Notes: generated by a model from the letters alone, not told the origin. 64,000 nucleotides of DNA from an uncultured Candidatus Saccharibacteria bacterium (GCA_964535385.1 CAZHSY010000005.1:263-64262), one strand, 5' to 3'; positions 5,824 through 53,288 are shown, numbered from the stretch's first letter. Made by a program: numbers and translations.

Positions 5824-7551
5824 CTAATTCCCCTTCTTCGCTACCTGCTTGGTCTTGAGGGCCCAGCGTTCGGCGTGATAAAAGCGATCTGACGGGCTGG
5901 TCAAGTAACTGGCCTCAACACCGCTCAAGCGAACGGTATGAGCATACAGGTAATCTGGCGAGTAAAGCAAGAGGGCGGGAGCATCATCGGCCCACAGACT
6001 GACAAATTCCTGATACTTTTTATTACGAAACGCAGGGTCCTTACCTAGCCGAGCCTGTTCGATCAAGCTATCGGCCTTCGGATTGCTGTAGGCTGATAGA
6101 TTCAGGCCAGGGTCAGTCGCCTGACTGGAGTGCCAGAAGCTATAAACATCGCTCTCCCCGCCCATGTCTTGGCCATAGAGCAAGATATCGTACTCGCGAG
6201 GACGGATGTAGTTCTGTTGAAGGCTGAAGCTGTCCACCGTCACCACATCGACTGCCACGCCGGCGTCTTGGAAATTCTTGGCTACTCGAGCTGCCAGTAC
6301 TGGATAATCGCCGCTATTGACCGTCACAAGCTTCAGGCGATTCTTGAAGACACCCTGTAAGGCTGACTGGGCAGCACTGGCGTCATATGCAGGCTTGGTG
6401 GCCTGGGCATTGAAGCCGCCGTAGCCAGGAAGGATTGGGTAATTGATAATACTCCCCTCGTCGTGTAAGACATCATGAAAAATAGCTTCACGATCGACCG
6501 CCTTCGCAAGCGCCCGCCGCACATCTACGCTATCGAGGCCAGTCCGCTTGGTATTAAAATACACACCGACCATCACCGGCAGACGACTGCGTGTAACATC
6601 AAGCTGTGAGTACTTCTCGAGAGTTTTTACTTGCTCCGGCAAAACGCCGGCCATACCGTCAATCTCACGCTTGGCATAGCTATCGAGCATGCCGCGGGCG
6701 TCATCGAACTGCTTGAGCTCAATGGCATCGAGGTAGGCCTTTTGCCCATAATATTCTGGGTTGCGCTTCAGGCGGATAGCCGTCGCCTGTGGATCAAGCG
6801 GCTCCATCATGAATGGACCACTGCCAATCGGCTGTTGATTGTACTCATCGAGTCGCAGCATATTCGGCTGAACATTGCCGAGAACGTGCTCCGGCAGAAT
6901 ACTGACGCGGCCGAGGGCGTTTAGGAAGCCGCTATAGCTGGCTGGCAACACGAACTGAATATGCGTGTCATCGATCTGATTGATCACCACCTTGCCCCAG
7001 CTAGTAGCCAGCAAGGATCGGCTATCCGGGTTTTGGATAGTCTTAAAGGTAAAAATCACGTCCTTGGCCGTGAGTGGCACCCCATCCTGCCACTTCACCC
7101 CCTGTCGCAAGCCAATCGTATAGGTACGCTTATCACTCGAAGCCTCCCAACTAGTCGCAAGATCAGGCTCAATTGTTTCATTGGCCTTGACTCGAATCAG
7201 GCGCGAGAAAACTAGAGACGTCACATCTGAGGTAGCAGTATTATCTTCATAGAGTGGATTTACCAGGTGAACACGGCCAACAATCCCCTCGCGGTAGACA
7301 CCACCACTAGCCGGAACGGTCTTCTGCCATGAGCTGTCCAGATGATCCCAAGCCCTAACCAGACCAAAGATACTGATAAAAGCGATAAAAATCCAAGCCG
7401 CAAACTGCCAACGCATCTGACCGAGTTTCTGCCAGGCACCGTAGACATGGCGCTGTACGTAGTTATGGAGCCAAAGTCGAGCAGCCTTAAACCAACGGAC
7501 GAAGGCCCGGCGAGCTTGGTGGAAACGAAAGACAAAGTAGTTTGAACGCAT
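5824..7551 (-). CDS. ABC transporter substrate-binding protein, family 5 (oligopeptide/dipeptide/nickel type), with N-terminal membrane anchor
   Basis: 575 aa. SBP_bac_5 hallmarks (YTIGLRQGVKWQDGVPLTAKDVIFTF). N-terminal TM helix FAAWIFIAFISIFGLV. The real start may be the internal Met (MRWQF...). Confidence 0.8.
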   Translation of the reverse strand: MRSNYFVFRFHQARRAFVRWFKAARLWLHNYVQRHVYGAWQKLGQMRWQFAAWIFIAFISIFGLVRAWDHLDSSWQKTVPASGGVYREGIVGRVHLVNPLYEDNTATSDVTSLVFSRLIRVKANETIEPDLATSWEASSDKRTYTIGLRQGVKWQDGVPLTAKDVIFTFKTIQNPDSRSLLATSWGKVVINQIDDTHIQFVLPASYSGFLNALGRVSILPEHVLGNVQPNMLRLDEYNQQPIGSGPFMMEPLDPQATAIRLKRNPEYYGQKAYLDAIELKQFDDARGMLDSYAKREIDGMAGVLPEQVKTLEKYSQLDVTRSRLPVMVGVYFNTKRTGLDSVDVRRALAKAVDREAIFHDVLHDEGSIINYPILPGYGGFNAQATKPAYDASAAQSALQGVFKNRLKLVTVNSGDYPVLAARVAKNFQDAGVAVDVVTVDSFSLQQNYIRPREYDILLYGQDMGGESDVYSFWHSSQATDPGLNLSAYSNPKADSLIEQARLGKDPAFRNKKYQEFVSLWADDAPALLLYSPDYLYAHTVRLSGVEASYLTSPSDRFYHAERWALKTKQVAKKGN

Positions 7552-7570: not shown

Positions 7571-7789
7571 CTAGGCCAGGAAAAGCCGAGCCAATAAACT
7601 CACTACCAAAATCACGGCTAGCGCGATCGTGAAACCAAACAACCCGCGCTCTGCTCCGCGTCGGGTTCGATACACATTACTTGAACCACCAAAAGCGTCT
7701 CCTAGACCGCTCCCTTGGCTCTGCAACAATACAGCCACAATCAATAAAATCGAACTGGCTACAGCAATTATATTCAGCGCTACTATCAT
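7571..7789 (-). CDS. secG: Preprotein translocase subunit SecG
   Basis: 72 aa with two TM segments and the SecG loop motif LLQSQGSGLGDAFGGSS. Confidence 0.75.
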   Translation of the reverse strand: MIVALNIIAVASSILLIVAVLLQSQGSGLGDAFGGSSNVYRTRRGAERGLFGFTIALAVILVVSLLARLFLA

Positions 7790-8151
7790 GCGACTGACTC
7801 CTTACCTGGCATCAGAGCTGAGAAGAGATAGTTGACGAGCCAAATGATAATAACGGTGCCAATAGCAGTCGTCCACTTCGTAATCGATAAAGAGGGGTAG
7901 AAGAAGCTTGTGATGTAAAGCATGGCGGCGTTCACGAATAACATGAATATCCCGAGCGTCAAGACAATGGCCGGAAGACTCAAGAGGACTACCAGTGGGC
8001 GGATGAAGGCATTGACGATACCAAAAACAAGAGCTGCAATTACCAGTACGATAATCCGATCATCATACTGAATACGCCCAGCGAAAAGCTGTGCGGCAAT
8101 CCACAAACCTACGAAATTTACTGCCCATGAGAAAAGTATTCGACGGAGCAT
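7786..8151 (-). CDS. DUF360 / phage-holin-4-like 4-TM membrane protein
   Basis: 121 aa with 4 predicted TM helices. Pattern FxGLWIAAQLF...IVNAFIRPLVVLLSLPAIVLTLGIFMLFVNAAML is typical of PF04020. 4-nt overlap with secG. Confidence 0.65.
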   Translation of the reverse strand: MLRRILFSWAVNFVGLWIAAQLFAGRIQYDDRIIVLVIAALVFGIVNAFIRPLVVLLSLPAIVLTLGIFMLFVNAAMLYITSFFYPSLSITKWTTAIGTVIIIWLVNYLFSALMPGKESVA

Positions 8152-14834: not shown

Positions 14835-16142
14835 CTATTTTGTAAAGCGACTCTTCAGTGCAGCCAGCTCGTCACGAACCTTCTGCAGACCAGCATCAAG
14901 CTCATCAACGTGCTGTTCGAGACGAACTAAGGCAGCCTGTGTCTCGCCGCTGTCATCTGGTTTGACTTCTCCCGTAGTAGCTGCGATATCTACGCTCGAC
15001 TCCGAGTCATCGTTTGGTGTTACTACCCTGTCCTCTTCCTTAGCCTTTGGATCGCTGCTGTCGGTCACGTATTCGCCACGGCCTGAGAGAATATCACTGA
15101 CTTCACCAGCAACTTCGGCGGATTTTTCATCTGAGGCGGCTTGAGGGGCTTCAGATAACGCATCCTCACTCGTAGGGACACCCTCATCCACTTTGCTAGA
15201 CTGTTCGGATTGCCAAGCCTGACCTTCTTCGACCGGTGGGGCTGGTGGCTCGGGTGAGCTATCTGATGTCGTGTCAGTACCCGAAACTACCGCATCAGCA
15301 AATGGAGCTTCTGCGGTGACAGTGGGCTCATCCGGTACCTCGACTGCAGATGGTACTTCTTCGCTTGCAGAAGGCTCTGCGACCGGCTCAATGTCGGCGA
15401 CTGGGGTTTCTTCAGTCGTCGCTGGCTCAAATGGATGACTTGGAATCTCAAAACTATCATGACTAGCCTCCGGACTCTCTAGTGATGGAGTATCCACTGG
15501 ACTAGGTTCTGTGGGTTCTTCAGGCGAGGTTAGCTCAGGGGTATCGGTCTGACTATTCTGAACCGCATTGGCAGCGTGAGCAGCCTGAGCGTCCTTCAGG
15601 GCCTGCATATCTGGGTCTGTACTCTCGGTAGCTTCAGCCGCAGCAGACTCTTCTAGGACTGGAGTATCACTGTCTGGAGTGCTAGCTTCTAGGCTAGGGA
15701 CTGGCTCATCCGCAGCCATAACTTCTGAAGTAGGGGTTGGCTCATCTGTAATTGGAGCTTGGTCGGCAGCCGCTTCCGCCGCCGGAGTCTCAGGCGCAAC
15801 CGAAGGAGTCTCGCTCGCAGTGAGGTCAACTGGCTCATGTCCACCCTTAGGAATAGCATGCACATCACTCATAGTACTATTGCTCACGACTGCCTCAGGA
15901 GTTGGCGCTTCCAAGGGTGCTGGCGGGTCAGTCTCAGTCGTAGCGGCAGTCGCAAGATCAGCCACACCGGCCGCGGCTGCATCTTCCGGATGAATCACGT
16001 TCGGATCAGCTGGAGCTTCATCTGCGACTGCTGCAGTTGGGTCATCATGGTGACCAAAAATCTTACTAAAGAATCCCCCCTGCTTGGCGTGAGCGTCCTC
16101 GGCGTGCATCGACGTACTTTTCCTCTCTTTATTGGCGTACAA
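14835..16142 (-). CDS. Highly acidic intrinsically disordered protein (Glu/Asp/Pro/Thr/Ala-rich) with C-terminal coiled coil
   Basis: 435 aa. Long open frame across GC-rich DNA. C-terminal ETQAALVRLEQHVDELDAGLQKVRDELAALKSRF. Confidence 0.5.
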   Translation of the reverse strand: MYANKERKSTSMHAEDAHAKQGGFFSKIFGHHDDPTAAVADEAPADPNVIHPEDAAAAGVADLATAATTETDPPAPLEAPTPEAVVSNSTMSDVHAIPKGGHEPVDLTASETPSVAPETPAAEAAADQAPITDEPTPTSEVMAADEPVPSLEASTPDSDTPVLEESAAAEATESTDPDMQALKDAQAAHAANAVQNSQTDTPELTSPEEPTEPSPVDTPSLESPEASHDSFEIPSHPFEPATTEETPVADIEPVAEPSASEEVPSAVEVPDEPTVTAEAPFADAVVSGTDTTSDSSPEPPAPPVEEGQAWQSEQSSKVDEGVPTSEDALSEAPQAASDEKSAEVAGEVSDILSGRGEYVTDSSDPKAKEEDRVVTPNDDSESSVDIAATTGEVKPDDSGETQAALVRLEQHVDELDAGLQKVRDELAALKSRFTK

Positions 16143-16217
16143 AATCTTAATTGGCGTGCAAAGAGCTTATGCTCTAATCACATTAAGTGTAGCAAAGTTT
16201 TAGCTTACCGCCTAGGC

Positions 16218-17273
16218 TTATTCATACCCCTCAGGAGTAAGCTCAACCGACGGCGTTCGTACCTTTAAAGTAACTTCCTCTTCGACTGTTTTGGCGGCGT
16301 CCTGATCGAGCCTACTCTCCGTATCGGCTAACCGAGCGAGATCTCGTTTGAAGCGATCATTGCGTTGACTAAAATCGCGTAAAGACTCCTGCATCTGTCC
16401 TGGCGGGAAACGATATAAGAGTTGATTGAGCTGATCAATCAGAGTAGTGAGAGCAGTCTCAAGCTGTTGTGCTTGGTCTCGCAGTTCGCCTGAGAAACTC
16501 CGGGCTGTGGCCAAATCGGGCTGTGCTTGCAAGCCTTCACGGCCCTTATTTAGGCTATATGACGATTGATAAACTTGATCTTGGAATTGCTGACGAGCCT
16601 GCAGAAGCTCGGCCGCCATTGGTCCACCCTGCAAAGCTTGTTCGAGAGGCTTGAGCTTCTCGTCAACTTCGCGGTGTAGCATGCGTGTAAGATTGTTTGT
16701 TGTCCTGAAGCGCTGCTCGAGCTCGCCATTATATTGCTCTTGCTCTGGAACTTCTGCTTCCGCAGGCTCGAGAGCCGCTGATGCCCGGTCGGATACCCTG
16801 ACAGCAGCTGCTTCAGCTGACGCTGGCGCCTCCTGGGCCGGTAAAGCTTCCGGCGTCATATCGGCTACCAGGATATCCTCTTGCATCTCGCCGGTCAGGT
16901 TTGGATTCGATGCGGGTGTATCCTGAGGCTGTTCCCAGGCCGTGTTTTCATCCGGGGAGTCGTCGGCATCGATTTGCGCTTGATAGGCGGCCTCATAAGA
17001 TTCGAAAGTCATGTACTGACCAGCGGCATTCTCTACAAACCATCGACCGTCCGGCATAGCATGTCCAGATATACCACCCTCGTCAAAGAAATCCTTACGA
17101 AATTGCTTGAGCTGGCGATCCGCCTCAGCTTGATCGCGGTCGGCCTGCTCGGCGGTCTGACGATTAGTCAGATCAGCAATGCCTTGCAAGTCATGTCGAC
17201 GGGTATCTTCTGGAGAGTCAGCCGAGACCTCAGGCTGGGTGTCCTCCGTACTCTCATATTCTGGACTTAGCAT
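16218..17273 (-). CDS. Acidic coiled-coil protein of unknown function
   Basis: 351 aa. Gln/Glu/Ala/Asp-rich with heptad-like C-terminal half. Confidence 0.5.
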   Translation of the reverse strand: MLSPEYESTEDTQPEVSADSPEDTRRHDLQGIADLTNRQTAEQADRDQAEADRQLKQFRKDFFDEGGISGHAMPDGRWFVENAAGQYMTFESYEAAYQAQIDADDSPDENTAWEQPQDTPASNPNLTGEMQEDILVADMTPEALPAQEAPASAEAAAVRVSDRASAALEPAEAEVPEQEQYNGELEQRFRTTNNLTRMLHREVDEKLKPLEQALQGGPMAAELLQARQQFQDQVYQSSYSLNKGREGLQAQPDLATARSFSGELRDQAQQLETALTTLIDQLNQLLYRFPPGQMQESLRDFSQRNDRFKRDLARLADTESRLDQDAAKTVEEEVTLKVRTPSVELTPEGYE

Positions 17274-17322
17274 ATCTCTATACCACTCATGCTTCTAGTA
17301 TGACATAGCTATTCATAAAGAA

Positions 17323-18387
17323 CTACGGCAGACGCCGCTGAACTGGTGATTGGTTAAAGTAGCGATTCAAAACAGGCTCAAGAGCTACAATATGTGACCC
17401 ACCGTAGGGAACAAATGGCTTTTTACCAGATTTCACAGCGCCGGTTATCGCCTCAAAGATATGTCGATCCCGAAAAACACTGACTCGATTTCCAATCTGA
17501 TTCATTCTCCCATCACGAGTTGGCGATGCTAGGTTGATAAGCTCCGTCGGATCCTCGATGCCGAAACGTAATTCACCATCTACCACTGTGAATTCTGGCA
17601 AGCCTTGCTCCTCCAGAATTGGGTTGAAGTGTTGCAAGGCAAACTCTGTGCCGCGATGGGCGAAATCAGCCAACACCTCAGCTGTGCGTTGAGGATCGCG
17701 GCTGATCTCAGTCTTCTCCTCTTCGGTAAGCTCATGAAAACCCGGTACAGCATTACGAGCTAACTGGAAGCAAATCAACGCTGGCAAATTCCCTGTTCCT
17801 CGTTCGGCTAGAAGTTGTGGCCCAAGAGCTCGCAAAGTAGTGAAGAGAGCCGTTTCAGTGCGCGATATACCTTGCCGCTCAAGTTCCGTCGCCACCTCAC
17901 CATCTGACGGCTCCCCAGAAATAGCCGGCGTTTGCGTCTGAGCAGCCAAGAACTGAGCCAGACCCGAATCGGCTCGTCGCTGAATTGCGGTGGTGCGATC
18001 CGTAAAAGACTGAGCTGACCCCTCAAAGATAAGCAGTCTCTCATCTGGTGGCGTCTCCTCCAGATACTTCTGAAATGAGGCTTCGAGATCGCGATGGGCC
18101 TGGGCTTCAGGATCTTGCTCATGTCCGCTAATGGCTTCTCCGGACGCATCAACTCGTATTGAAGCTACGAGTGTAGCGCCTGGATAATGATACTCAGTTA
18201 TCTTTCCGGCTTTAGTCCGCTCTTGATTAGCTCGATCGTACCGATCGTCATAGCCAGAGTATTCACTCCAGGCCTCTTCACGGCGCTCTGACTCGTCTTG
18301 GGCTGCACTGCTATCCATTATCATCTTCAAGCCGTCGGTTTCAGGAAATAAGACTTCGGACTCATCCCGACTACCCTCCGGGTTCAC
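17323..18387 (-). CDS. Hypothetical protein overlapping uvrB by 1 nt
   Basis: 354 aa. The start overlaps the uvrB stop by 1 nt. Acidic N-terminal half and a more ordered C-terminal half (…RDRHIFEAITGAVKSGKKPFVPYGGSHIVALEPVL). Confidence 0.55.
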   Translation of the reverse strand: MNPEGSRDESEVLFPETDGLKMIMDSSAAQDESERREEAWSEYSGYDDRYDRANQERTKAGKITEYHYPGATLVASIRVDASGEAISGHEQDPEAQAHRDLEASFQKYLEETPPDERLLIFEGSAQSFTDRTTAIQRRADSGLAQFLAAQTQTPAISGEPSDGEVATELERQGISRTETALFTTLRALGPQLLAERGTGNLPALICFQLARNAVPGFHELTEEEKTEISRDPQRTAEVLADFAHRGTEFALQHFNPILEEQGLPEFTVVDGELRFGIEDPTELINLASPTRDGRMNQIGNRVSVFRDRHIFEAITGAVKSGKKPFVPYGGSHIVALEPVLNRYFNQSPVQRRLP

Positions 18388-20372
18388 TACTTCTTTATCC
18401 TTTGTCCGAGCTGGAAATCTTTAATCTCGGCAATCTGATCACGCAGCTCAGCGGCTTTTTCAAACTGCAAATTCGCGGCTGCCATGTCCATCTGCTCATT
18501 AAGTTGCTTCAGAAGCTGCTTCAGCTCATCCTTGGGGATCTTATTCAGATCCAGCTCCTTCACATCGGCAAGCTCAGTCTCCTTCTCCTCGGCCATCCGC
18601 TCGGCAATTGCCTTTTGGATACCCTGCGGCGTGATGCCATGCGCTTCGTTATAGGCTTGTTGCTTCTCACGGCGGCGCTCGGTCTCATCGATGGCGGCCT
18701 TCATCGATCGCGTGATCGTATCGGCGTACATAATCACCCGTCCGTCAACGTGACGAGCCGCTCTACCAATGGTCTGAATCAGGGCCGACTGGCTACGCAA
18801 GAAGCCTTCTTTATCGGCGTCAATGATGGCCACCAACGAGACTTCTGGGAGATCGAGCCCTTCGCGCAAGAGATTGATCCCAACCAAAACGTCGTACACA
18901 CCCAAGCGTAAGTCGCGCAAGATATCAGTCCGCTCGAGTGTGTTTACCTCGGAGTGCAGGTACTGGACTTTAATGCCAATATCGGCCAGATATTCTGAGA
19001 GATCCTCGGACATCCGCTTGGTTAGGGTGGTAACGAGTGTTCGCTGCCCCTTTTTGACTCGATCGCGAATCTCGGCGATAAGATCGTCAATCTGATGCTC
19101 GACCGGACGAACTTCGATCTTAGGATCGATAAGACCAGTCGGACGAATAATTTGTTCGACAACCCGTGATGAACGTGACAGTTCATAGTCGGTCGGCGTC
19201 GCCGAGACATAAACGACTTGATTAATGTGGCGATCAAATTCCTCAAAGCGAAGTGGCCTATTGTCTAGTGCGCTTGGCAAACGAAAGCCATAGTTAACCA
19301 ACACTTCCTTACGGGCTCGGTCACCATTAAACATACCTCGCACCTGCGGTACAGTAATATGACTCTCGTCAATCAACATTAGAAAGTCATCCGGAAAATA
19401 GTCGAGCAAGGTGGCTGGCTGCTCGCCTGGTTCGCGATTAGTCAGATAGCGTGAGTAATTCTCGATACCTTTTACAAAACCAGTCTGCTCGAGGATCTCA
19501 CAGTCATATTGAATGCGTTGCTCAAGACGTTGAGCTTCTAAGTGCTGCTCATTCTTCTTGAAATAGGCAATCCGCTCAGTAGCTTCGCTTTTAATCTGCA
19601 CAATTGCCTTCTGAAGCTGCTCCTTGGGCGTCACATAGTGCTTAGCCGGAAAGATCGTGATCTGATCTGGTCGATCAAGCATCTCGCCGGTGAGCGGATC
19701 GAGCTTAGCAATCGACTCTACTTCGTCACCAAAGAACTGAATCCGATAGGCCTCTTCGCCATCGGCTGGGATCACGTCGACATACTCACCGCGCACCCGG
19801 AAGGTACCACGCATGAAGTTCTGGTCATTGCGGCTGTACTGAATGTCGGTCAGATGGCGCAAGAATTTATCACGCCTGCGCAACTCACCTTTCTTAATCG
19901 GTAGCGCCATAGCCGAGAACGCCTCGACCGTACCGATGCCGTAGATACACGATACCGAAGCAATGATCAGCGTGTCCGGGCGGGTCAACAATGAGCTGGT
20001 CGCGGCCAAACGCAAGCGATCAATTTCTTCATTGATCGAGCTATCCTTCTCGATATACGTATCACTCCGGGGAATATAAGCTTCTGGCTGGTAATAATCG
20101 AAGTAGCTCACAAAATAGTGCACCGCGTTGTCCGGGAAGAATTCTTTAAACTCCGAGTACAACTGAGCCGCCAGTGTCTTATTGTGGCTTAAGACCAGCG
20201 TCGGCTTATTGCGTTGAGCAATAAGATTGGCCATCGAGAAGGTCTTGCCGGATCCTGTCACGCCGAGTAGGGTTTGCTCGCGCTCACCAGTAGCTATGCC
20301 GGAGGCAAGCTGCCTAATTGCCTCGGGTTGGTCGCCGGATGGTTCGTATTTTGATCGGAGATTGAAGGCCAT
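18387..20372 (-). CDS. uvrB: Excinuclease ABC subunit B (UvrB)
   Basis: 661 aa. Helicase motifs ([12 protein letters not shown]), beta-hairpin region, and C-terminal UVR domain ([15 protein letters not shown]). Confidence 0.95.
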
Positions 20373-20476
20373 AACCTTCAGTATAGCGCGTTTTTAAAAA
20401 ACCGTAAGCCCCATCAAGCAGTTGAGCCACCCAAAGACCTGGGTGGCTCACGATAGCGCCGACTAAGCCGGCCTGG

Positions 20477-21607
20477 CTATTTCTTAGTCGCAGGATTAGC
20501 AGGAGTGGGTGGTGTCGCTGATATGACAGGCGAAACTTGAGTGGTCGTTCCAGGATTTGTAGGAGTAGTGGTCGTGGTAGAGGGTGGAGGAGTAGTTGGT
20601 GTCGGAGTGACTGAGGGGTCACCAACCGTCGCGTCGCGAGTAATTAGATTAAGAAGGATCTCTTTTTTATACTCTCCAGTGATATATATCTGTAAGCCTT
20701 TAGTTACATCCTTAATCGTGACATACTGGCAAACTCGGAAGTCCTTGAACCCGCTCGTACCAGCTGGTGTCTGTATGTAGTTTACATCTCGAGCACCGAC
20801 ACCATTACCATCGAAACCGATACTCAACGCGCTACTGCTTGAAGCCTCTATGCAATAATTTGCTGTACCAACTACAGGCTTAACCTGAACATATAAATAC
20901 TCTCCACCAGGTGAGGTTGCCGTACCGCCACTGGGGACACTCTTACTTACAATGTAGGGACTCCAGGATGACTGAAGAGTCCCGTACTTGAGAGCTGCAT
21001 TGGCCTGACTTGGATCAATTGTAATAGCGCTTGGCCGCCACGCAAAATCTCCAGACGTACCAGCCGAGTTAGCGATAAACCGCACTGCGCCTATTGAGGC
21101 CGAGCCGCCAGTAACTGATAGCTCAAATTCACGATTAGGATATGTATTGTCTGCGCCTACCTGCACACAACTTGATGTTGTAGAGGCGGCTTTTACTCTA
21201 TTCGTTCCATTGACGCTAAAAACAGATAGTGTCACTACCGCTTCACCGCCACCGTAGAGTATCGTTGCCGGCATCGCACAGTATGTACCCGCACCTAGAT
21301 TCTGATGGGCTATGCGAAAGCTTCCCTCCTGCGCGTACCAAGTGGTAGCCGGCGTTGAGCCAGGCAGTGTCGCGCGCACCCCACCATAGCCATCCGTTAC
21401 ATTAAATGACTGAAAACTATCGGCATACCATACCTTTGTGCCAACTGCGACAGTAGCTGCCTTACTCAACTGGTAATACAAGAAGCCAAGAGCCACAACG
21501 ATCACACCTGCGACCAGAGTAAGCGTTTTCCAGTTAAAAGAGGTCTTTTTTAAGGCTGTTTTTGTAGCGACACGAGACTTAGCTACTGTTTTGTTGACGA
21601 CGGCCAT
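20477..21607 (-). CDS. Secreted/membrane-anchored beta-rich protein with C-terminal Pro/Thr-rich tail; carries the shared N-terminal anchor module
   Basis: 376 aa. N-terminus KKTSFNWKTLTLVAGVIVVALGFLYYQLSKA. C-terminus TPTPTTPPPSTTTTTPTNPGTTTQ. Two internal Cys-containing repeats. Confidence 0.6.
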   Translation of the reverse strand: MAVVNKTVAKSRVATKTALKKTSFNWKTLTLVAGVIVVALGFLYYQLSKAATVAVGTKVWYADSFQSFNVTDGYGGVRATLPGSTPATTWYAQEGSFRIAHQNLGAGTYCAMPATILYGGGEAVVTLSVFSVNGTNRVKAASTTSSCVQVGADNTYPNREFELSVTGGSASIGAVRFIANSAGTSGDFAWRPSAITIDPSQANAALKYGTLQSSWSPYIVSKSVPSGGTATSPGGEYLYVQVKPVVGTANYCIEASSSSALSIGFDGNGVGARDVNYIQTPAGTSGFKDFRVCQYVTIKDVTKGLQIYITGEYKKEILLNLITRDATVGDPSVTPTPTTPPPSTTTTTPTNPGTTTQVSPVISATPPTPANPATKK

Positions 21608-21674
21608 GGTTTTTCCTTTTTTATTTTCTACTAGTAATACTTATGCTTAAAGATAGCTGAAGAGAGATGATATG

Positions 21675-23147
21675 TCAAAGTTTTTTATGCTGTTTTCGCG
21701 CCATGATGAAAGACCTTATCACATACCAGATAGCTAGCATGCCCGATATCGGCACTATCCAATCACCCACGTATTCGTAAACGGTTTTCTTACTATTGGC
21801 CCGCACCTCGGCCGCCACCACCGCCCCTTGACCAGACCACGCAAAAGCTTGGGTTTTGCCATCCTTATCTAGGATATATGCCGGTCCGCCCTTAGCTGAC
21901 TGCACGAAAGGCTTAGCGTGAGCCACGGCTGCCAGTCGGTTCATTTGTAAGGCTTCATGATGAAAAAGTGGTGAGATACCCATGGTGTCTAGTGCTGCCG
22001 AATTCGTAAAAATCTCGGCGCCTTGCTGAGCTAGTTGGTTATAGAAGTCTGGTGAAAGCACCCCCGAGCAAGCGTGCGCACCGTAGCTCACCCCCTCATA
22101 CTCAAAAGGTCTTTCTAGCGCTTCACCGCGACTTACACTCTTCTGCTGATTAAAATGTAACAGCAACTGACCATGTCCGGCATATGCTAATACGACCTGG
22201 TAAATGTATGGCACGTATTCCCCAGCCGGCACAACAAACCACTTCTGCTGCTGGTTCAGCGTGTCCCCGGTCGCAGTTTGGAAGGTTAGTAAATTATGAC
22301 TTTGAGCGGCAGTACTGTCGCGCCGACTATGAATTATTAAGCCCTCATCACGCTTCATGAGCGATGTCAGCACAGCTGCATCAGCTTCTCGATCGCTCGC
22401 CGTATCAAAATAATGCGAATACTCCGGTAGCACCAAGGTATCCAAGCGACTCTTGGGGCCGGCGCTCAGGACCGGATAACTCTCACTAGAACGCAGATAG
22501 GTTGCGTCCTGTCGAGCATATTCCACCGCGCCAATCGTTAGGCTTTGACCATGGTCGGCACGATACAAAAACCAGCCCGCAAAGGTCAGCCCAAGCACTA
22601 GGGTTATAATAAGCACTAGAGGTCGTACTTGTTGAAGTCGCCACCACTGATAGGCAGCTACCGCCAAGGCCATAATGACAAAACTCAACAGATACACTCC
22701 ACCGAAACGAGACAGGTATGATACTGGTGTCTCGGCCAGGTAGTAGCCCAGATGACCAAACGTCCAATATGGCCCCACTCTGCCGTCCGGCCCCAGGCTA
22801 ATGATGGAGAATAGGATCGCCCGTAGATACTCAGAAACAACCCAGAGGGCCGGTATCAGCCAGAGAGCTTGCCGGTCAGTCCACTTCACGCCCGAGCGTC
22901 GCTGAAGCCAAACAAAGACCATAAAGCCCAGTGCCAAACCGCTTACAGTTACCAGTGCGACCGAGAAAGCTACGATTTTTATCAAAAAGCCGTCTGCTAT
23001 CTCCGAGGTCTTGATGGTCGCCATCCAGGAAACCACGAGGGAGAAATAGATGATACCAATGGCATACGAGCTCACGTACGGATGCCGCCATGACCAATTA
23101 CGTAAGCGCTTTATAACCAATGCAGGACTTTTGTTTGGCTTTGACAT
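21675..23147 (-). CDS. Polytopic membrane protein with C-terminal CN-hydrolase-like domain (apolipoprotein N-acyltransferase/Lnt-like, divergent)
   Basis: 490 aa. At least 6 N-terminal TM helices and the Lnt-like WLIPALWVVSEYLR motif. Soluble domain with conserved Cys (GAHACSG). A terminal TM helix as in Lnt. Confidence 0.45.
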   Translation of the reverse strand: MSKPNKSPALVIKRLRNWSWRHPYVSSYAIGIIYFSLVVSWMATIKTSEIADGFLIKIVAFSVALVTVSGLALGFMVFVWLQRRSGVKWTDRQALWLIPALWVVSEYLRAILFSIISLGPDGRVGPYWTFGHLGYYLAETPVSYLSRFGGVYLLSFVIMALAVAAYQWWRLQQVRPLVLIITLVLGLTFAGWFLYRADHGQSLTIGAVEYARQDATYLRSSESYPVLSAGPKSRLDTLVLPEYSHYFDTASDREADAAVLTSLMKRDEGLIIHSRRDSTAAQSHNLLTFQTATGDTLNQQQKWFVVPAGEYVPYIYQVVLAYAGHGQLLLHFNQQKSVSRGEALERPFEYEGVSYGAHACSGVLSPDFYNQLAQQGAEIFTNSAALDTMGISPLFHHEALQMNRLAAVAHAKPFVQSAKGGPAYILDKDGKTQAFAWSGQGAVVAAEVRANSKKTVYEYVGDWIVPISGMLAIWYVIRSFIMARKQHKKL

Positions 23148-23214
23148 ATCCCAACTACCATACCAAAACTACCTCGGCTGACCGAGGTAGTTTTTTAATA
23201 GTTTAGATACCCCC

Positions 23215-24216
23215 TTACGACTTCCTGGCCGCGTTCGGACTGGCGAGGGCATTCCAGGTATTTGTGCCGACCACGCCGTCTTTAGGCAGACCACTCTTGG
23301 ACTGGAAGACCTTAACTGCACTGGTAGTTTTCTCGCCATAGATGCCGTCTACAGTACCAGGATCATAGCCGAGATCTTTGAGGCGCTGCTGGATGAAGGT
23401 TACGCAGGCGTTTTGATTACCTTGGCCGTTGACCATGGTGGCGCAATTAAGCGGCGTCGGCGTAGCGGGAGCTGGAGCTTTGGCGGCCGGGTTGGCGGCG
23501 GGAGGCGGCGTGGTGGCTGGAGCGGGATTCGAGGTTGGCGTGGTGGCAGCGCGAGTTTTGGCGGCGGAGTCCGAGACTGGAGTGGGCGCAGCACCGACAA
23601 CTCTTATCCCAGTAATATAGTCACCAGTGCTAATACCCACTTCTAACTTAACCGGCTCATTTGGGCCACACATTTTCTTGATATGACCCGCCGGCACGGG
23701 CAGAGATAGCGTGAAGGGAGCTTTAACCACACCTGTGGTGACTTGTTCGACCGACAGATCATTACTTGCGCATCTCGCCGTTATGGATGCGTTACCTCTT
23801 GCCACAAAGCCATCATTATCCGAATCAAACAAAGTAACCTGATATGTTGTGTCAGCATCTGGATAGGCCAGCAATCCCCCGCTATTACCGAGCCCTACAT
23901 TAGGATAGGTATTCACGCTGCCAAACCCCGGGCCGTAAATAACCTTCGTGCCATTAACCTTTGTACCCTGGCTAGCACCGTCCGTCTTTTTAATATCGTC
24001 AACGCTAATGGTACCGATGCCAGAAGCCCTGCTCAACCGTACATACAAAAATCCAAGAGCGAGCACCAGCACAACTGCTATTAGGCCGACTATCTTCCAA
24101 TTAAACTTTAGCTTTTTACTGAGGACACCACTCTTAGCGACATTGGTCTTGTTGGTTTTCATAGCCCTCGATGTAGCTTTTGATTTATTTTTTGCAGGCG
24201 CTGACTTAGTAACCAT
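23215..24216 (-). CDS. Membrane-anchored secreted protein with C-terminal peptidoglycan-binding domain (PG_binding_1)
   Basis: 333 aa. N-terminus KKLKFNWKIVGLIAVVLVLALGFLYVRLSRA, a Pro/Ala-rich linker, and C-terminal CVTFIQQRLKDLGYDPGTVDGIYGEKTTSAVKVFQSKSGLPKDGVVGTNTWNAL. Confidence 0.7.
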   Translation of the reverse strand: MVTKSAPAKNKSKATSRAMKTNKTNVAKSGVLSKKLKFNWKIVGLIAVVLVLALGFLYVRLSRASGIGTISVDDIKKTDGASQGTKVNGTKVIYGPGFGSVNTYPNVGLGNSGGLLAYPDADTTYQVTLFDSDNDGFVARGNASITARCASNDLSVEQVTTGVVKAPFTLSLPVPAGHIKKMCGPNEPVKLEVGISTGDYITGIRVVGAAPTPVSDSAAKTRAATTPTSNPAPATTPPPAANPAAKAPAPATPTPLNCATMVNGQGNQNACVTFIQQRLKDLGYDPGTVDGIYGEKTTSAVKVFQSKSGLPKDGVVGTNTWNALASPNAARKS

Positions 24217-24323
24217 GAATGATTTTCCTCTTTTTGACAGGTTTTATAAATGCTTATGCTTATGCTTAAGAATAGCTGTGAGTCATAATAGCTGTCAACT
24301 ACCTGACTGCGACGGAGCCACGG

Positions 24324-25004
24324 CTAGAACTTGTACGCCGCGCCGCTTCCGCCGCCGCCGATAATCGTGCCGTAGCCCGATATAGATGCGTCGGTCTTAC
24401 TGTAGTTACGACGCACTACCTGATCGCTAACATTACCTTCGATAGTTGAGACCTGGGGCTCTTTATTGGCCGGAAAATCAACCTTCTCAACAATGCCGGT
24501 ATGACTCTCGTCATCACCGAAGACAATTACGTCACCGGGCGCAGGCGTGTAGCTTCCATTTCGACCACCCCATTGCCAGGTGCCTTGAGTGGAGAAATAG
24601 TCGCGTAGATTCGGCTTGCCAGCTACTTTTTTCCAGGCTAAAGTAATACGCCAGGAACTTCGGCCTGCCTCAGGTGTGGTATAGAAGGGGTAGCCTGCTG
24701 ACATATATACCCAGCTCACAAAGTCAGCACACCATCGCTCGCGATGTCCTTCGGTGTAAGCCAGGACTTGCGGACTATATTCTCGCTGCCCCACCTGTGA
24801 GCTGGCCACCTGTAGAACACGCAAGCGTTGGTAGCCATCATAGTTGGCTGCCCGAGACAACCGTACGTATAAGTAACCAAGTGCGGCAACCATAACCACC
24901 CCTATCATGGCTGCAATCTTCCAATTAAATCTTTGTTTTTTGTTCAGAGCAGTCTTCTTAGCAGTGTGGCCTCGGGTGGGTTTGGTAGATGACTTGGTGG
25001 GCAT
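24324..25004 (-). CDS. Membrane-anchored CHAP-domain peptidoglycan amidase/peptidase
   Basis: 226 aa. N-terminus KKQRFNWKIAAMIGVVMVAALGYLYVRLSRA. CHAP Cys motif WCADFVSWVY and His motif GDDESHTGIV. Confidence 0.75.
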   Translation of the reverse strand: MPTKSSTKPTRGHTAKKTALNKKQRFNWKIAAMIGVVMVAALGYLYVRLSRAANYDGYQRLRVLQVASSQVGQREYSPQVLAYTEGHRERWCADFVSWVYMSAGYPFYTTPEAGRSSWRITLAWKKVAGKPNLRDYFSTQGTWQWGGRNGSYTPAPGDVIVFGDDESHTGIVEKVDFPANKEPQVSTIEGNVSDQVVRRNYSKTDASISGYGTIIGGGGSGAAYKF

Positions 25005-25052
25005 AATGAGCTTCTTTTAATTTGTCATAAGCATAAGCGCAAAGAAGCCAAT

Positions 25053-25097
25053 CTGTCAAAAAAAGACTTACATAATCTGTAAGTCTTTTTTTGACAG
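25053..25097. terminator. Perfect 18-bp palindrome GTCAAAAAAAGACTTACA-taatc-TGTAAGTCTTTTTTTGAC with flanking A/T runs; probable bidirectional terminator after grx
   Basis: Inverted repeat with U-tracts on both strands, lying between the grx 3' end and the CHAP gene start. Confidence 0.55.
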
Positions 25098-25106
25098 TAT
25101 GCGACC

Positions 25107-25355
25107 CTAGGTAGCCAGGGCAGCTTCAAGCTTCGGCTTATCAAAGCCCACGATAACAGTCCCCTTGATGTCGGTCACGGGCACGCCCATCTGGCCGGAC
25201 TTATCGATCATTTCTTGAGCCTTAGCCGAGTCAGCCAGGACATTAATCTCCTCGTAAGCTACCCCTTTCTCATCGAGCATAGCCTTCACATTCTTGCAAA
25301 AGACACAGGTTGGGGTGCTGTAAATAATCACCTTATCTTGGACTTGATCACTCAT
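25107..25355 (-). CDS. Glutaredoxin-like protein (NrdH/Grx family, CxxC)
   Basis: 82 aa. IIYSTPTCVFCKNVKAMLDEKGVAYEEINV is a thioredoxin-fold CVFC active site. Confidence 0.8.
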   Translation of the reverse strand: MSDQVQDKVIIYSTPTCVFCKNVKAMLDEKGVAYEEINVLADSAKAQEMIDKSGQMGVPVTDIKGTVIVGFDKPKLEAALAT

Positions 25356-25424
25356 GAATTTCCTCCTAATTTAATACATAACAGTTAACATGTTTACTAA
25401 AATTTTACCACACATGTATGGCCA

Positions 25425-25600
25425 AATCCAGGCCGTGGCTAGTCACGGCCTGGCCTGCGCACAAAAACACTACCCGCCCCATCCTCCTAGTACCCGGTCG
25501 CCCTGAGTGATGCTGGCAAGTACTTCTTCTCTTAGGGTGTATTAAGGTGTATACGCAATTACGCCGCCTGAGCACCGCAGAGAAAAACTACTAGCCAGCG
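25425..25600. repeat. Dispersed intergenic repeat, copy C (core in plus orientation)
   Basis: ggccgtggctagtcacggcctggcctgcgcacaaaaac...tagtacccggtcgccctgagtgatgctggcaagtacttcttctcttagg...ccgcagagaaaaac. About 170 nt, collinear with copy D. Confidence 0.6.
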
Positions 25601-25620
25601 CGCTCTAGACTGGGCGGCTT

Positions 25621-26652
25621 TCAGGAGTCAGTGTTGACCTTAAGCCAAGTGGAGACTTCCATAGCCGCCTTAGCCCCCTCGCCGGCCGCCACGATAATCT
25701 GCTTGTGCGGCACATCGGTCACATCGCCAGCCGCAAAAACGCCTTCAACCGACGTCATATTGTGTTTATCAATAATAATTTCATGATTGTCGTTGAGTTT
25801 CACAAAGCCTTCTGCGAAGTCATCAGCCGGTATAGAGCCAGCTTCAATCATCACACCTTGTACCGCCAGCTCCTTCTCCTTGCCCGTCGACTTCTCCTGC
25901 ACGGTGATGGCCTGCACGACGCTGTCTCCGGTGATCCGCAATGTCTGGGCATCATTGATTATGCGAATATTGGCTGCTGCCCGAGCCTTGTCGACCATCA
26001 CTTCATCGGCCGTCAATTCAGCCGTAAGATTAATAATATATACCTGCGTAGCAATCTTCTCGACTACAAAAGCAGCGTCAAGGGCCGAGTTGCCACCACC
26101 GATGATAGCCACGGCTTTATCTTTAAATAATGGACCGTCACACCACGCACAGTACGTTACACCCTTATGTAGGAATTCTGTCTCACCCGGAATACCAAGC
26201 TGCCTAGGCTGTTTTCCGCTAGATATAATTACCGCCCGAGCAGCCTGACTACTGCCGTCTGCTAGTACCAGGCGAAATCCTTGCTTACCAAGGGAAACAA
26301 TTTCGCGCACACCATCCTTAGTGAGTTTAAGAGTAATATCTTCCCGGAAAGCTTGGAGATGATCCTGAAAATGCCGGGTCAGCTCAGCTCCAGTCAGCAG
26401 AGTATAGCCAAGGTAGTTTTCGACATCGCTCGACCAAGCCGTCTGACCACCAATGTCCTTGGTAATCAGCAGCGTCTTCAGCTTCTTGCGAGCTAAATAT
26501 ATACAGGCTGCCATGCCAGCCGGTCCGCTGCCGATGACGGCGACATCATGCTGTGACGGTCGATCAGCCGGATTAGCCACAGCCAAAACAGCCGCCTGAC
26601 TACGCTGAGTCGGCGCAGTCGTCAAAATAGATGAGGACGTAGTGGCTTCCAT
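25621..26652 (-). CDS. trxB: Thioredoxin-disulfide reductase
   Basis: FAD motif VAVIGSGPAGMAACIY, redox-active CAWCDG, NADPH motif IIGGGNSALDAAF. Confidence 0.9.
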   Translation of the reverse strand: MEATTSSSILTTAPTQRSQAAVLAVANPADRPSQHDVAVIGSGPAGMAACIYLARKKLKTLLITKDIGGQTAWSSDVENYLGYTLLTGAELTRHFQDHLQAFREDITLKLTKDGVREIVSLGKQGFRLVLADGSSQAARAVIISSGKQPRQLGIPGETEFLHKGVTYCAWCDGPLFKDKAVAIIGGGNSALDAAFVVEKIATQVYIINLTAELTADEVMVDKARAAANIRIINDAQTLRITGDSVVQAITVQEKSTGKEKELAVQGVMIEAGSIPADDFAEGFVKLNDNHEIIIDKHNMTSVEGVFAAGDVTDVPHKQIIVAAGEGAKAAMEVSTWLKVNTDS

Positions 26653-36072: not shown

Positions 36073-36386
36073 ACGCCTGATTGTATCAAACCTGATAGCA
36101 TCAGGCCATTGTCTACCGACCTAATATCTAGATCTAGACTGCAAAAACAGCCAAACTAATTGCGGCCAATACTATAGCTACACCTGCAATGATGCATATA
36201 TCGATAAAACTTATCTGACTCTTAAAGAATTTCATACGTCCAATCTACTTATGCTTAAGTTACTGGAATTTCTCAATAAATTCAAATCTACACCTGAAAA
36301 ACTACGCCTAGTCAAACCATCACCAGCACTATAGATCGGCACAGACTAGACAGGGGGGTTTCTTTCTGGTAACGTAGACACTCGTT

Positions 36387-50709: not shown

Positions 50710-51906
50710 CTAGCGAGGCCACGTACCATCATAGTATGCCCAGCCGAGATATTGATTGCTCAAGCCTGTCACGCGATGCTGCCAAACTGGCGAGCGTTGG
50801 CCACTATATCCTTGAGTCGAAATTACATAGCCATTTCCGATAGATATCCCCACATGCCCATCGGCACCAGCATAGAAAACGAAGGCACCAGCTGGTGGAC
50901 TAGCATCGGTATGCATAGCCCCACGCTGCAAGCGATACTGGTAATGAGTGAAGGCTGAAGCGGCCCGACCACGGACACCATAGGCCAGCTCAACAAACGT
51001 CTCACATCGGCCCGACCACCAGGCACCAAGTTGATCACTCCAAGCCGGAGCCGGTGAGCTCCTCTCGGCGCTGACCCAAGCCACCGCTCGAACTTCAGCG
51101 GCCGTTTGACAGGCTGGCGCGATACCCTGCACTGGATGTGTCTTCAAGGTGAGCTCGAGGTTATCGCGACTTAGCTCTGTAATCGGCTGGCCGGACTGAC
51201 AGCGCTGCAATTGCTCGGCCTCGCGGTATTCGAGGGCTTGTTCACCCTGTAAGAGAAAGGCACTCGCACTATAGCTCGCCGAGTGCACCAGCTGACCGCT
51301 TGGTAGTTGTGGCAACTGACGCACGCCTACTTCAGCTCGCCAGACCAAGACGCCATGTTCAAAATCCTGTCGCCGCTCACCCTGCCAATCAAACGCATCA
51401 CCAATTGGCTGGCCCAGGTTCGTTCGATGATCTAACTGACTGTAGTACGACCAGAAAGGCTCAGGAACCACGAAGCTGCTGGCCGGTGTCGCAACTACCG
51501 CCACGGTACCGAGGCTGCCACCGCTGAATACCTGGGTAGAACCAACCTCAGTTTGGTCGGCTTCCGATAGCGGCATGCCGATAGTTAGTGGATCCAGCTC
51601 CTCCACGACACGCCAAATCTCTGGCTGTACAACCACCACTCGGCTGCCGCAACCAGGAGCCATTAGTGTCGTCTCCCGCCCATCATCGCGATACGTCTGG
51701 GTGCAGCCCAATTGGGTGACGGTCGGAGGAGTTGGCTCCCCAAGCTCTCCTCTTGCGCTTAACTCAGCTTGCTTCTGCTCAAAAGCCCGAGCTGCGACCT
51801 GACTCACCACGGCAGGCCGAGCACCGGCCTGCGCAGCTTGAGGAACTAGTAAATAAACTGCCACCACCCCCATAACCTGTACTAGATATCGTAAACGAAT
51901 CTTCAC
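50710..51906 (-). CDS. Secreted LGFP-repeat + NlpC/P60/CHAP-like cell-wall peptidase
   Basis: Sec signal peptide (AQA). LGFP-like repeats (W..Y.....LG.P....Q.FE.G.L.W). C-terminal Cys/His catalytic domain (CETFV...GHVGISIG). Confidence 0.65.
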   Translation of the reverse strand: MKIRLRYLVQVMGVVAVYLLVPQAAQAGARPAVVSQVAARAFEQKQAELSARGELGEPTPPTVTQLGCTQTYRDDGRETTLMAPGCGSRVVVVQPEIWRVVEELDPLTIGMPLSEADQTEVGSTQVFSGGSLGTVAVVATPASSFVVPEPFWSYYSQLDHRTNLGQPIGDAFDWQGERRQDFEHGVLVWRAEVGVRQLPQLPSGQLVHSASYSASAFLLQGEQALEYREAEQLQRCQSGQPITELSRDNLELTLKTHPVQGIAPACQTAAEVRAVAWVSAERSSPAPAWSDQLGAWWSGRCETFVELAYGVRGRAASAFTHYQYRLQRGAMHTDASPPAGAFVFYAGADGHVGISIGNGYVISTQGYSGQRSPVWQHRVTGLSNQYLGWAYYDGTWPR

Positions 51907-52649: not shown

Positions 52650-53288
52650 ATGATCCGTCGTAGACCCCGCACTGCGGTGCAAGCCCACCCCCATGAGACT
52701 CCCTACTACGCTCCTGGCAAAACCAAAGCCAAAAGACGTCGAGTGGTGCTATTAATCTTGGCAATAGCCTGCATCCTAGCCGGATTGTATCTGGGTTACC
52801 TTTTGCTCAGCCCAAAGATCGCTACTCTAGTGCCGATCAAAACCAAGATTGACCTTAATACAACCGACGACTCGACCGATCATCGTAATCGTATCCAGAT
52901 ACAGAAGATCAATCTTGAAGTGCCGTTCCTGGAAGGCGACGCTAGCTCATTAGATCACGGCGCCTGGCACCGTTACCCCGAGCGAGGCAATCCCGAAGAT
53001 GGCGGCAACTTCATCCTCTCAGCTCACCGCTTTAATATTGGTACCACACCAGTAGAAACAAAAGAACGCTCACCTTTCTATAATGTTGATAAACTAAAAG
53101 TCGGCGACACTATGCGGGTTTTTTATAATGACCACTGGTATGACTATGTAATCACCAAGACCTACAGCGTTAAGCCAAATGCGATTGAGATCGAAGCCCC
53201 GTCCGAAGATGCTCACCTCACTCTCTACAGTTGTTCGCTGGGAGGTAGCAGTGACGGCCGAACCGTCATTGAAGCCAAGCTTAAATAA
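52650..53288 (+). CDS. Sortase (class E/F-like transpeptidase) with N-terminal membrane anchor
   Basis: Catalytic His (LSAHRF), TLxTC-type motif LTLYSCS, and conserved Arg near the C-terminus. Confidence 0.78.
   Translation: MIRRRPRTAVQAHPHETPYYAPGKTKAKRRRVVLLILAIACILAGLYLGYLLLSPKIATLVPIKTKIDLNTTDDSTDHRNRIQIQKINLEVPFLEGDASSLDHGAWHRYPERGNPEDGGNFILSAHRFNIGTTPVETKERSPFYNVDKLKVGDTMRVFYNDHWYDYVITKTYSVKPNAIEIEAPSEDAHLTLYSCSLGGSSDGRTVIEAKLK

Follow-up and report, generated by a model that had tools for sequence, protein, structure and literature searches.

Why should three proteins with unrelated C-terminal domains, encoded in a single gene cluster, begin with the same N-terminus? This question is raised by positions 20477-25004 of a 64,000-nucleotide stretch of DNA from an uncultured Candidatus Saccharibacteria bacterium (the whole stretch is called the window below), where proteins of 376, 333 and 226 amino acids (aa) share a basic tail, an FNWK motif, a hydrophobic helix and an LG[FY]LY motif. 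Saccharibacteria and other Patescibacteria live attached to host bacteria, and little is known about how proteins are presented on, and delivered from, the surface of these cells. Here we report that this N-terminus is a genuine module, not a chance resemblance, and that it had not been catalogued before. We consider it, with a probability of roughly 55%, to be a lineage-specific, cleavable Sec-type export leader with an extended conserved n-region that is tied to a locus encoding an Lnt-like N-acyltransferase.

A shared leader on three proteins

Based on open reading frame (ORF) calls, a six-frame motif scan and a hidden Markov model (HMM) we confirmed the central observation of the first-pass annotation of this DNA, namely that three genes share a leader composed of a Lys/Thr-rich tail, FNWK, a transmembrane (TM) helix and LG(F/Y)LY. 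In all three proteins a Lys/Thr/Ser-rich n-region is followed by FNWK, exactly 12 further residues, LG[FY]LY and [VY][RQ]LS[KR]A, and the complete leaders span 50-64 residues. The n-region is 23-37 residues long and carries 7-12 Lys or Arg and no Asp or Glu before the hydrophobic segment, and it thus has the positive charge of the n-region of a Sec-type signal peptide. The leader of the 226-aa protein (aa 1-52; 24849..25004, minus strand) reads MPTKSSTKPTRGHTAKKTALNKKQRFNWKIAAMIGVVMVAALGYLYVRLSRA and continues with ANYDG after the putative cut, that of the 333-aa protein (aa 1-64; 24025..24216, minus strand) ends in KKLKFNWKIVGLIAVVLVLALGFLYVRLSRA and continues with SGIG, and that of the 376-aa protein (aa 1-50; 21458..21607, minus strand) reads MAVVNKTVAKSRVATKTALKKTSFNWKTLTLVAGVIVVALGFLYYQLSKA and continues with ATVAVG.

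The FNWK-type and LG[FY]LY motifs each occur three times in the six-frame translation of the window, all at these three N-termini, and an HMM of the three leaders scored its own members at E 1e-25 to 1e-34 and the next best of 467 window ORFs at E 0.94. A chance origin of the shared N-termini is excluded. Scans with Pfam (E <= 0.1) and NCBIfam (E <= 1) returned no model that covers the leader, and we found no literature on it. The leaders had been called near-identical, which overstates their similarity, as the 31-residue core is 52-71% identical among the three proteins.

The interval holds four co-oriented minus-strand genes rather than three, with a glutaredoxin gene (Grx) on one side and uvrB on the other, and the leader genes, which had been described as adjacent, are separated by a gene for a 490-aa Lnt-like protein (21675-23147, minus strand). 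The CHAP protein (P0003, 226 aa; 24324..25004, minus strand) consists of the leader and a CHAP peptidoglycan hydrolase domain (Pfam, E 4.9e-11) and ends in ...GAAYKF. The PG_binding_1 protein (P0002, 333 aa; 23215..24216, minus strand) consists of the leader, a beta-rich domain of no known family, a Pro/Thr/Ala linker and a C-terminal PG_binding_1 domain (E 2.8e-20). The 376-aa protein (P0001; 20477..21607, minus strand) has two beta-rich domains of unassigned fold behind the leader and a Pro/Thr-rich C-terminal tail that runs to ...NPATKK, and gave no Pfam or NCBIfam match. A recognisable cell-wall domain is therefore present in two of the three leader proteins, and their earlier description as cell-wall proteins is supported by a domain for the PG_binding_1 and CHAP proteins only.

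The mature parts of the three proteins are 5-13% identical in pairs, and BLASTP of the 376-aa against the 333-aa mature part gave E 1.3, that is no detectable similarity. A possible homology of these two parts, suggested by GTKVWY in one and GTKVIY in the other, was not significant and was dropped. The homologues of the 376-aa protein are P0105, P0109 and P0122; a profile search of the PDB with this protein identified no relative, and an AlphaFold2 (AF2) model from five sequences, with a predicted local distance difference test score (pLDDT) of 50, was of insufficient quality to search for related folds. The closest named homologue of the CHAP protein is from Saccharibacteria, and the UvrB of the window is 84-85% identical to UvrB of Candidatus Saccharibacteria metagenome-assembled genomes (MAGs).

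Distribution and cargo of the leader

A 13-sequence leader profile, searched against 1.84 billion (1.84e9) protein cluster representatives, matched 49 clusters at E <= 1e-3 and 27 at E <= 1e-10. For 47 of the 49 the match begins within residues 1-13 of proteins of 46-624 aa; the remaining two are long proteins (E ~5e-5) matched over short internal stretches only, and are probably spurious. With a degenerate DNA pattern of the leader, 185,579 species genomes (GTDB) gave true matches only in seven Saccharibacteria/Patescibacteria MAGs, and a scan of JGI metagenomes with such a pattern returned six stretches, among them one true leader, again at uvrB. The leader is thus not limited to three tandem duplicates, and it is lineage-specific: all confirmed matches lie in a narrow Saccharibacteria/Patescibacteria lineage and in one kind of locus. 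A Bacteroidetes family with GFNWK...KLGYFYH was rejected together with out-of-frame matches, as it has no basic n-region and the motif is not N-terminal. Viral contigs scanned for the leader gave no match, for which reason a phage origin was dropped. A profile of the three leaders gave no match in a 5.8-billion word-indexed database, but this search also missed the queries themselves and is uninformative, probably due to a limit on short queries.

When the first 130 mature residues were compared, the leader-bearing proteins fell into at least 16 cargo groups not linked by BLAST, with the three window proteins in three different groups. The reuse of the module on unrelated C-terminal domains was therefore correctly recognised in the first-pass annotation. 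Pfam assigned PG_binding_1 to 15 of 51 members and DUF5074 to two, in addition to DUF3472, GH43, CHAP and one weak GH42-like match, and the majority had no match. The commonest cargo, in 24 of 59 proteins, is an uncharacterised domain of about 140 aa that begins [AG][AG]Y.W.P...G....K.DG. and has no Pfam match (e.g. P0088, P0096, P0100 and locus L021 at 6277-6915).

Other exported proteins of the window, namely an NlpC/P60+LGFP hydrolase, a polysaccharide deacetylase, a DsbA-like protein and a solute-binding protein, have ordinary N-termini without FNWK, and the leader is therefore neither the default signal of this organism nor a general cell-wall tag. Of the earlier proposal of a reused sorting module, the reuse stands, but a general sorting function for the cell wall does not, as other wall proteins lack FNWK and the distribution is very narrow.

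Conservation of the leader above that of its cargo

For comparison we used 59 leader-bearing proteins from other assemblies. In 1583 of 1597 pairs the identity of the leader core was higher than that of the mature part, and pairs with less than 10% cargo identity still had a median leader identity of 55%. The CHAP protein of the window and its orthologues are 71-81% identical in the leader and 48-59% in the catalytic domain. Ordinary signal peptides change faster than their cargo, and the FNWK leader shows the reverse pattern. At the nucleotide level, window leaders compared in pairs use the same codon at only 6-10 of 16-23 identical residues other than Met and Trp. Synonymous codons are thus largely randomised between the window copies, and recent duplication or gene conversion therefore cannot explain the leader identity. 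Judged from these sequence comparisons, selection acts on the leader peptide itself.

Conserved positions are found along the whole leader. The n-region contains [KR][ST]N[VI]A[KR] (SNVAK) and a terminal KKxKFNWK, and the hydrophobic segment of 18 residues (mean Kyte-Doolittle value 2.3-3.1 across the best 15) has small residues at every fourth position of the helix (A-21, G-17, V/A-13 and G-9). Ser at -3 is present in 56 of 57 leaders and Ala at -1 in 57 of 57, with a variable -2 (Q, K, S, R and others); the search pattern had permitted S, T or G at -3 and A or V at -1. Ala at -1 is invariant among 28 CHAP orthologues, and both this Ala and Gly at -9 are kept without exception even in distant CHAP orthologues that have no FNWK. 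The residue at +1 is Ala in 26, Gly in 20 and Ser in 10 of the 59 leaders (56 of 59 small) and the +2 residue is G, T, S or A. The leaders thus have the small uncharged residues at -3 and -1 of the A-x-A rule and a variable -2, and similarity among paralogues halts exactly at S-x-A across the at least 16 unrelated cargo groups.

The AF2 model of the CHAP protein (pLDDT 84; top PDB match the CHAP lysin Ly7917, 5d74) predicts a 23-residue helix at 28-50, a disordered or low-confidence stretch at 51-53 that includes the S-R-A|A site, and a confident fold from about residue 57. In this model the globular domain starts about 5 residues past the S-R-A site.

Linkage to an Lnt-like gene

The gene between the 376-aa gene and the other two, with two leader genes upstream and one downstream, encodes P0005 (490 aa; 21675..23147, minus strand), a multi-pass membrane homologue of the Lnt-family N-acyltransferases with a CN_hydrolase domain. 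Solved Lnt structures (E. coli Lnt, 5xhq) can be aligned with P0005 from end to end, with the catalytic triad E242-K302-C360 in register, and the E-K-C triad is invariant in 11 Lnt-like homologues. With LNT_N above its cut-off (E 2e-12) and TIGR00546 at 89.7 bits, under the equivalog cut-off of 132.9, P0005 is a clear homologue at the family level. The gene starts 67 nt past the 333-aa gene, with no strong promoter-like site (10/12 matches) in between. We found no literature on Lnt in Saccharibacteria or Patescibacteria.

Every confident leader member (E <= 1e-4) with sufficient flanking sequence has an Lnt-like gene in its cluster, in three different flanking contexts. The order Grx-Lnt-[1-4 leader genes]-UvrB is found in the window and in L006, L007, L012, L016, L020, L021, L022, L029, L033 and L044, while the contigs of L038 and L041 are truncated and include no more than the uvrB side. 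In L045 and L047 the order is SpoU-Lnt, flanked by genes with variant leaders (Lnt 33-34% identical), and in L048 it is LexA...leader gene-Lnt, with a gap of 30 nt between the leader gene and Lnt. The variant leaders of L045, L047 and L048 (Lnt 33-37% identical) have a K-rich tail, FTFKPWQ, NFSPK or FNPK in the place of FNWK, a helix and GY.xVx[FL]SxA. The Lnt-like neighbour, the single type of locus and the co-duplication of a promoter with the leader (described below) are context that the first-pass annotation did not contain.

Several side observations were made at these loci. The cluster of L045 (GCA_964600985.1, 519-10378) contains about six exoprotein genes (VanY, DUF4214+VanY, CLIPPER-like and unassigned) around the 33%-identical Lnt-like gene; they carry a degenerate leader and the cluster looks like an expandable exoprotein island. 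A 755-aa ORF in L020 (5105-7372) is a leader gene fused in frame to uvrB minus approximately its first 97 codons, which may be an artefact of assembly or else a genuine deletion at the border of the variable slot. In L031, where a distant CHAP orthologue without FNWK does not adjoin an Lnt gene, a neighbouring 478-aa protein without Pfam match was tested as a possible Lnt and rejected. Immediately upstream of tatA and tatC in L042 (3546-8068) is a tandem pair of genes whose leaders are loosely similar (MPAKTKTK...PRFNALTLTLIAVGLAVVGYFIIKSLAAA); no Lnt gene adjoins this pair.

Proposed mechanism

Because the leader is conserved far beyond the needs of export, we consider that a specific partner, located in or at the membrane, must recognise it as well. 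From these features we infer a Sec route in which the basic, acid-free n-region with [KR][ST]N[VI]A[KR] and KKxKFNWK would stay cytoplasmic, the 18-residue hydrophobic helix would insert with its N-terminus in and its C-terminus out via Sec/YidC, and the cargo would be exported. Signal peptidase I (SPI) would cut after the invariant S-x-A and leave an Ala, Gly or Ser N-terminus. A dedicated membrane partner would read the leader, and the best candidate for this partner is the adjoining Lnt-family acyltransferase. The evolving unit is a cassette of promoter, 5' untranslated region (5'UTR) and leader, which has been duplicated and fused to many unrelated envelope-active cargo domains in one small cluster.

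A number of observations weigh against this proposal. Most of the Lnt-adjacent loci are syntenic orthologues, so that only about three contexts are independent, and L046, the most distant Lnt homologue checked (30% identity), has no leader-type neighbours. The weak match P0142 (E 6.6e-4) and its neighbour are located beside tatA/tatC, and none of the genes called within 12 kb is Lnt-like; P0142 was treated as a borderline non-member of the family. The Lnt-like gene could be a plain housekeeping Lnt, as the window has one lipobox-like protein (56944-58203), and the leader genes have promoters of their own and are therefore not obligatorily co-transcribed with Lnt. In the leader itself, the 18-residue h-region and the 23-residue predicted helix would also fit a stable signal anchor, small residues at a spacing of four are seen more often in helices with permanent TM-TM contacts than in signal peptides, which are transient, and a Sec c-region does not usually have an Arg at -5.

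Alternative explanations

An extension of the proposed export leader, which we put forward tentatively, is leader-guided lipidation that does not depend on cysteine. The Lnt-like enzyme would dock the leader helix and, after the SPI cut, acylate the alpha-amino group of the new Ala, Gly or Ser, and the cargo would be retained at the outer surface of the one membrane that this cell has. The leader and the Lnt-like enzyme would then form a previously unrecognised cysteine-independent lipoprotein pathway of Saccharibacteria, with docking, a cut at S-x-A and an N-acylated Ala, Gly or Ser. The persistence of the adjacency down to 33% Lnt identity in three flanking contexts, the invariant E-K-C triad and the small residues at +1 and +2 of the mature proteins are consistent with this possibility, and the short gaps between leader gene and Lnt (67 nt in the window, 30 nt in L048) fit co-transcription. 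There is a precedent in a Lnt homologue that acylates an N-terminal Gly generated by SPI (PMC7943197). Docking before cleavage would also explain why the whole helix is conserved, and in a monoderm a released substrate would diffuse off.

On the other side, the acylation itself is inferred only, the +1 residue is not an invariant Gly as in CexE and Aap, and a coupling has to be postulated since the leader is gone after cleavage. The enzyme may be an ordinary lipoprotein enzyme and the adjacency may merely reflect an envelope gene island. The L046 homologue has no leader-type neighbours, and many cargos already have a C-terminal PG_binding_1 domain for retention. If lipidation occurs, it would pin fast-changing wall- and glycan-active proteins to the surface of an organism whose way of life is attachment to other bacteria, and the promoter-leader cassette would be a plug-in socket for new cargo. 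With a functional link to Lnt, this would be the second known case of proteins that are lipidated without a cysteine, and the first from any monoderm or any member of the candidate phyla radiation.

Somewhat less likely is that the leader is an uncleaved signal anchor, as it had originally been named, in other words a permanent TM tether with its N-terminus in and C-terminus out, a basic cytoplasmic tail and a conserved helix face for oligomerisation or a membrane partner. With its 18 residues, the h-region would be as compatible with a long signal peptide of the Gram-positive type as with a signal anchor. The high hydrophobicity of the helix and the spacing of its small residues agree with an anchor, and the conserved cytoplasmic motifs SNVAK and KKxKFNWK suggest a lasting function of the tail. 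However, the invariant S at -3 and A at -1 with a free -2 are the signature of signal peptidase I and have no obvious role in an anchor. A further point against an anchor is that paralogue homology breaks off at precisely this position across at least 16 cargo groups. As the CHAP domain starts about 5 residues past the helix, there would be no spacer to reach the wall with an uncleaved leader, and a tethered CHAP could hardly reach peptidoglycan. In addition, 15 of 51 members have a wall-binding domain of their own, which is needed only if the protein is released. The name anchor is therefore not supported; cleavage at the S-x-A is probably the better description, and we would favour it over a permanent anchor by roughly 2:1.

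It is improbable that the leader has no special function, that is, that recent tandem duplication, gene conversion or cassette recombination multiplied an ordinary signal peptide along with its promoter and the copies have yet to diverge. The duplication of promoter, 5'UTR and leader as a unit speaks for this explanation, as does the location of tandem genes in one variable slot that holds 1-4 genes with different content between genomes. The largely randomised synonymous sites of the window copies and the conservation of the leader above its cargo, in nearly all pairs and in the CHAP orthologues, argue against it. Furthermore, the leader is kept across genomes in which UvrB is about 84% and Lnt 45-64% identical, and recognisable variants persist where Lnt is only 33-37% identical.

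A twin-arginine (Tat) signal peptide is very improbable, because the long n-region, the conserved basic/aromatic motif at the n/h boundary, the Arg at -5 that resembles a Sec-avoidance residue and the loosely similar leader pair beside tatA/tatC in L042 are offset by the absence of (S/T)-R-R-x-F-L-K (the consensus is KKxKFNWK, Lys prevails at all basic positions and RR is absent from nearly all 58 leaders), by the lack of any match to the Tat signal models of Pfam and NCBIfam, by an h-region far more hydrophobic than those of Tat signals, and by cargos that, where identified by Pfam (CHAP, PG_binding_1, GH43), come from families that would not be expected to require a cofactor and have no obvious need for folded export, most cargos being of unassigned fold. 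Signal-arrest-release (SAR) endolysin domains are weakly hydrophobic TM segments rich in Gly, Ala and Ser on muralytic enzymes that are usually encoded by phages. This candidate was dropped, as the leader has a strongly hydrophobic helix and diverse cargos, most of them non-lytic, and no viral contig matched.

Comparison with known systems

The YSIRK motif steers the site of secretion, which is at the septum (PMC5962339), and if the partner of the FNWK leader is not Lnt, the YSIRK/GXXS signal would be its nearest functional analogy. Both are long signal peptides with an aromatic-polar-hydrophobic-basic motif at the n/h boundary (YSIRK and FNWK, respectively) and a conserved Gly in the h-region, and both are common to unrelated envelope proteins of one lineage and cleaved by SPI (putatively so for the FNWK leader). 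In contrast to YSIRK/GXXS signals, the FNWK leader gave no match to PF04650 or TIGR01168, has a much longer n-region (23-40 residues) with a motif of its own, and is conserved over the whole helix and c-region. The three window proteins have no LPXTG-like C-terminal sorting signal, and the FNWK leader genes, which belong to the phylum Saccharibacteria, are found in one cluster beside an Lnt-like gene instead of being scattered over the genome.

In enteric E. coli the Lnt homologue AatD acylates the SPI-generated N-terminal glycine of CexE and Aap (PMC7943197). That system (PMC7943197, PMC7478709) resembles the FNWK locus in that an Lnt-family acyltransferase with an E-K-C triad is encoded with small exported proteins that have an SPI-type signal, an N-terminus rich in small residues and no lipobox Cys. 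The FNWK proteins differ in having Ala, Gly or Ser at +1 rather than an invariant Gly, and the gene products annotated at the loci that we inspected include no recognisable Aat-like ABC/TolC partner; several of these products lack a family match. Moreover, the FNWK-leader organism is single-membraned, and whereas the signal peptide of the Aat substrates is ordinary, the FNWK leader is the most conserved part of its proteins.

With the canonical Lgt-LspA-Lnt pathway the locus shares an Lnt homologue with a catalytic triad in the cluster and substrate signal peptides that end in small residues, but none of the 59 leaders has a lipobox or a Cys at +1, and the Lnt-like protein scores below the TIGR00546 cut-off. 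The ESPR extension (PF13018) of autotransporters and two-partner secretion (TPS) proteins is likewise a conserved N-terminal extension on unusually long signal peptides of one exported class. ESPR, however, belongs to Gram-negative outer-membrane pathways and has a hydrophobic segment of its own, while the extension of the FNWK leader is purely basic and polar. The KxYKxGKxW and ESPR models TIGR03715, PF19258 and PF13018 gave no match to the leader.

The promoter-leader cassette

The three best sigma-70-like sites in 20200-25700, each with a perfect TTGACA and 10/12 matches, are located 26-53 nt upstream of the three leader genes. The promoter of the CHAP gene is TTGACA-18-TATGCT (25030..25059, minus strand). 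That of the 333-aa gene is TTGACA-18-TATTCT with a TAAGCATAAGCATAAGCAT initial-transcribed element (24250..24298, minus strand), and its architecture is kept at 10 other loci. The promoter of the 376-aa gene, TTGACA-17-TATCTT with a TAAGCATAAGTAT element (21637..21678, minus strand), overlaps the end of the Lnt-like gene. The promoter and a TAAGCATAAGTA 5'UTR element are kept upstream of the leader genes at the ten other loci, including the more distant L044. Since promoter and 5'UTR are conserved along with the leader, the duplicated unit consists of promoter, 5'UTR and leader, joined to varying cargo. The earlier statement that the module is not a matter of paralogy thus holds for the cargos, which are unrelated, but not for the leaders themselves, which are paralogous.

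The AAGCATAAGCAT element was considered as a dedicated operator and rejected: it has 12 matches at 2 mismatches against 6.4 expected, 3 of 100 shuffles reach 12, and a copy is also present in front of a small ORF that is not related. A more probable role is that of a general promoter-proximal or initial-transcribed element, duplicated along with the leader. We also noted that TAAGCATAAGTA, which comes after the -10 in the leader-gene promoters, precedes a hydrophobic small ORF of 33 aa (MKFFKSQISFIDICIIAGVAIVLAAISLAVFAV) at 36134-36290 (minus strand).

Between the glutaredoxin and CHAP genes lies a perfect hairpin with a 19-bp stem and runs of A and T (CTGTCAAAAAAAGACTTAC-AGATTAT-GTAAGTCTTTTTTTGACAG; 25053..25097). 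It is a likely bidirectional intrinsic terminator that would isolate the leader cluster from upstream transcription. The 3' arm of the hairpin provides the -35 TTGACA of the CHAP promoter.

Implications

The leader marks a small and fast-diversifying exported set of peptidoglycan hydrolases, peptidoglycan binders, glycoside hydrolases and many unassigned proteins, whose genes lie in one hot-spot and are predicted to be transcribed from strong promoters that are conserved. The HMM of the leader is a simple sequence handle for candidate surface and host-interaction proteins of this lineage, and the leader itself may serve as a portable export tag when these organisms are studied genetically. The leader is a new addition to the few specialised signal peptides that encode more than export (YSIRK, KxYKxGKxW, ESPR) and is a member of none of these families.

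Other features of the window

Among the envelope genes of the window that have no FNWK leader are the NlpC/P60+LGFP hydrolase with a classical AQA signal (50710-51906, minus strand), a sortase (52650-53288, plus strand) and a protein with CBM_4_9 and polysaccharide deacetylase domains and a lipobox-like VIAAAC (56944-58203, plus strand). The family-5 solute-binding protein (5824-7551, minus strand) has an N-terminal extension of about 50 residues and a TM anchor in place of a lipobox, which is unusual for a monoderm and bears on the extent of canonical lipoprotein processing in this organism.

The genes uvrC, uvrA and uvrB are found together within 12 kb of the window. Between uvrA and uvrB, at 14835-18387 (minus strand), proteins of 435, 351 and 354 aa without Pfam match are encoded in a row, the last with an acidic N-terminus, and unannotated proteins are similarly placed at uvrB in the related loci L029 and L033. 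Finally, a 121-aa protein with four TM segments (7786-8151, minus strand) belongs to the Phage_holin_4_2 family (E 6e-24) and is encoded in a chromosomal context.

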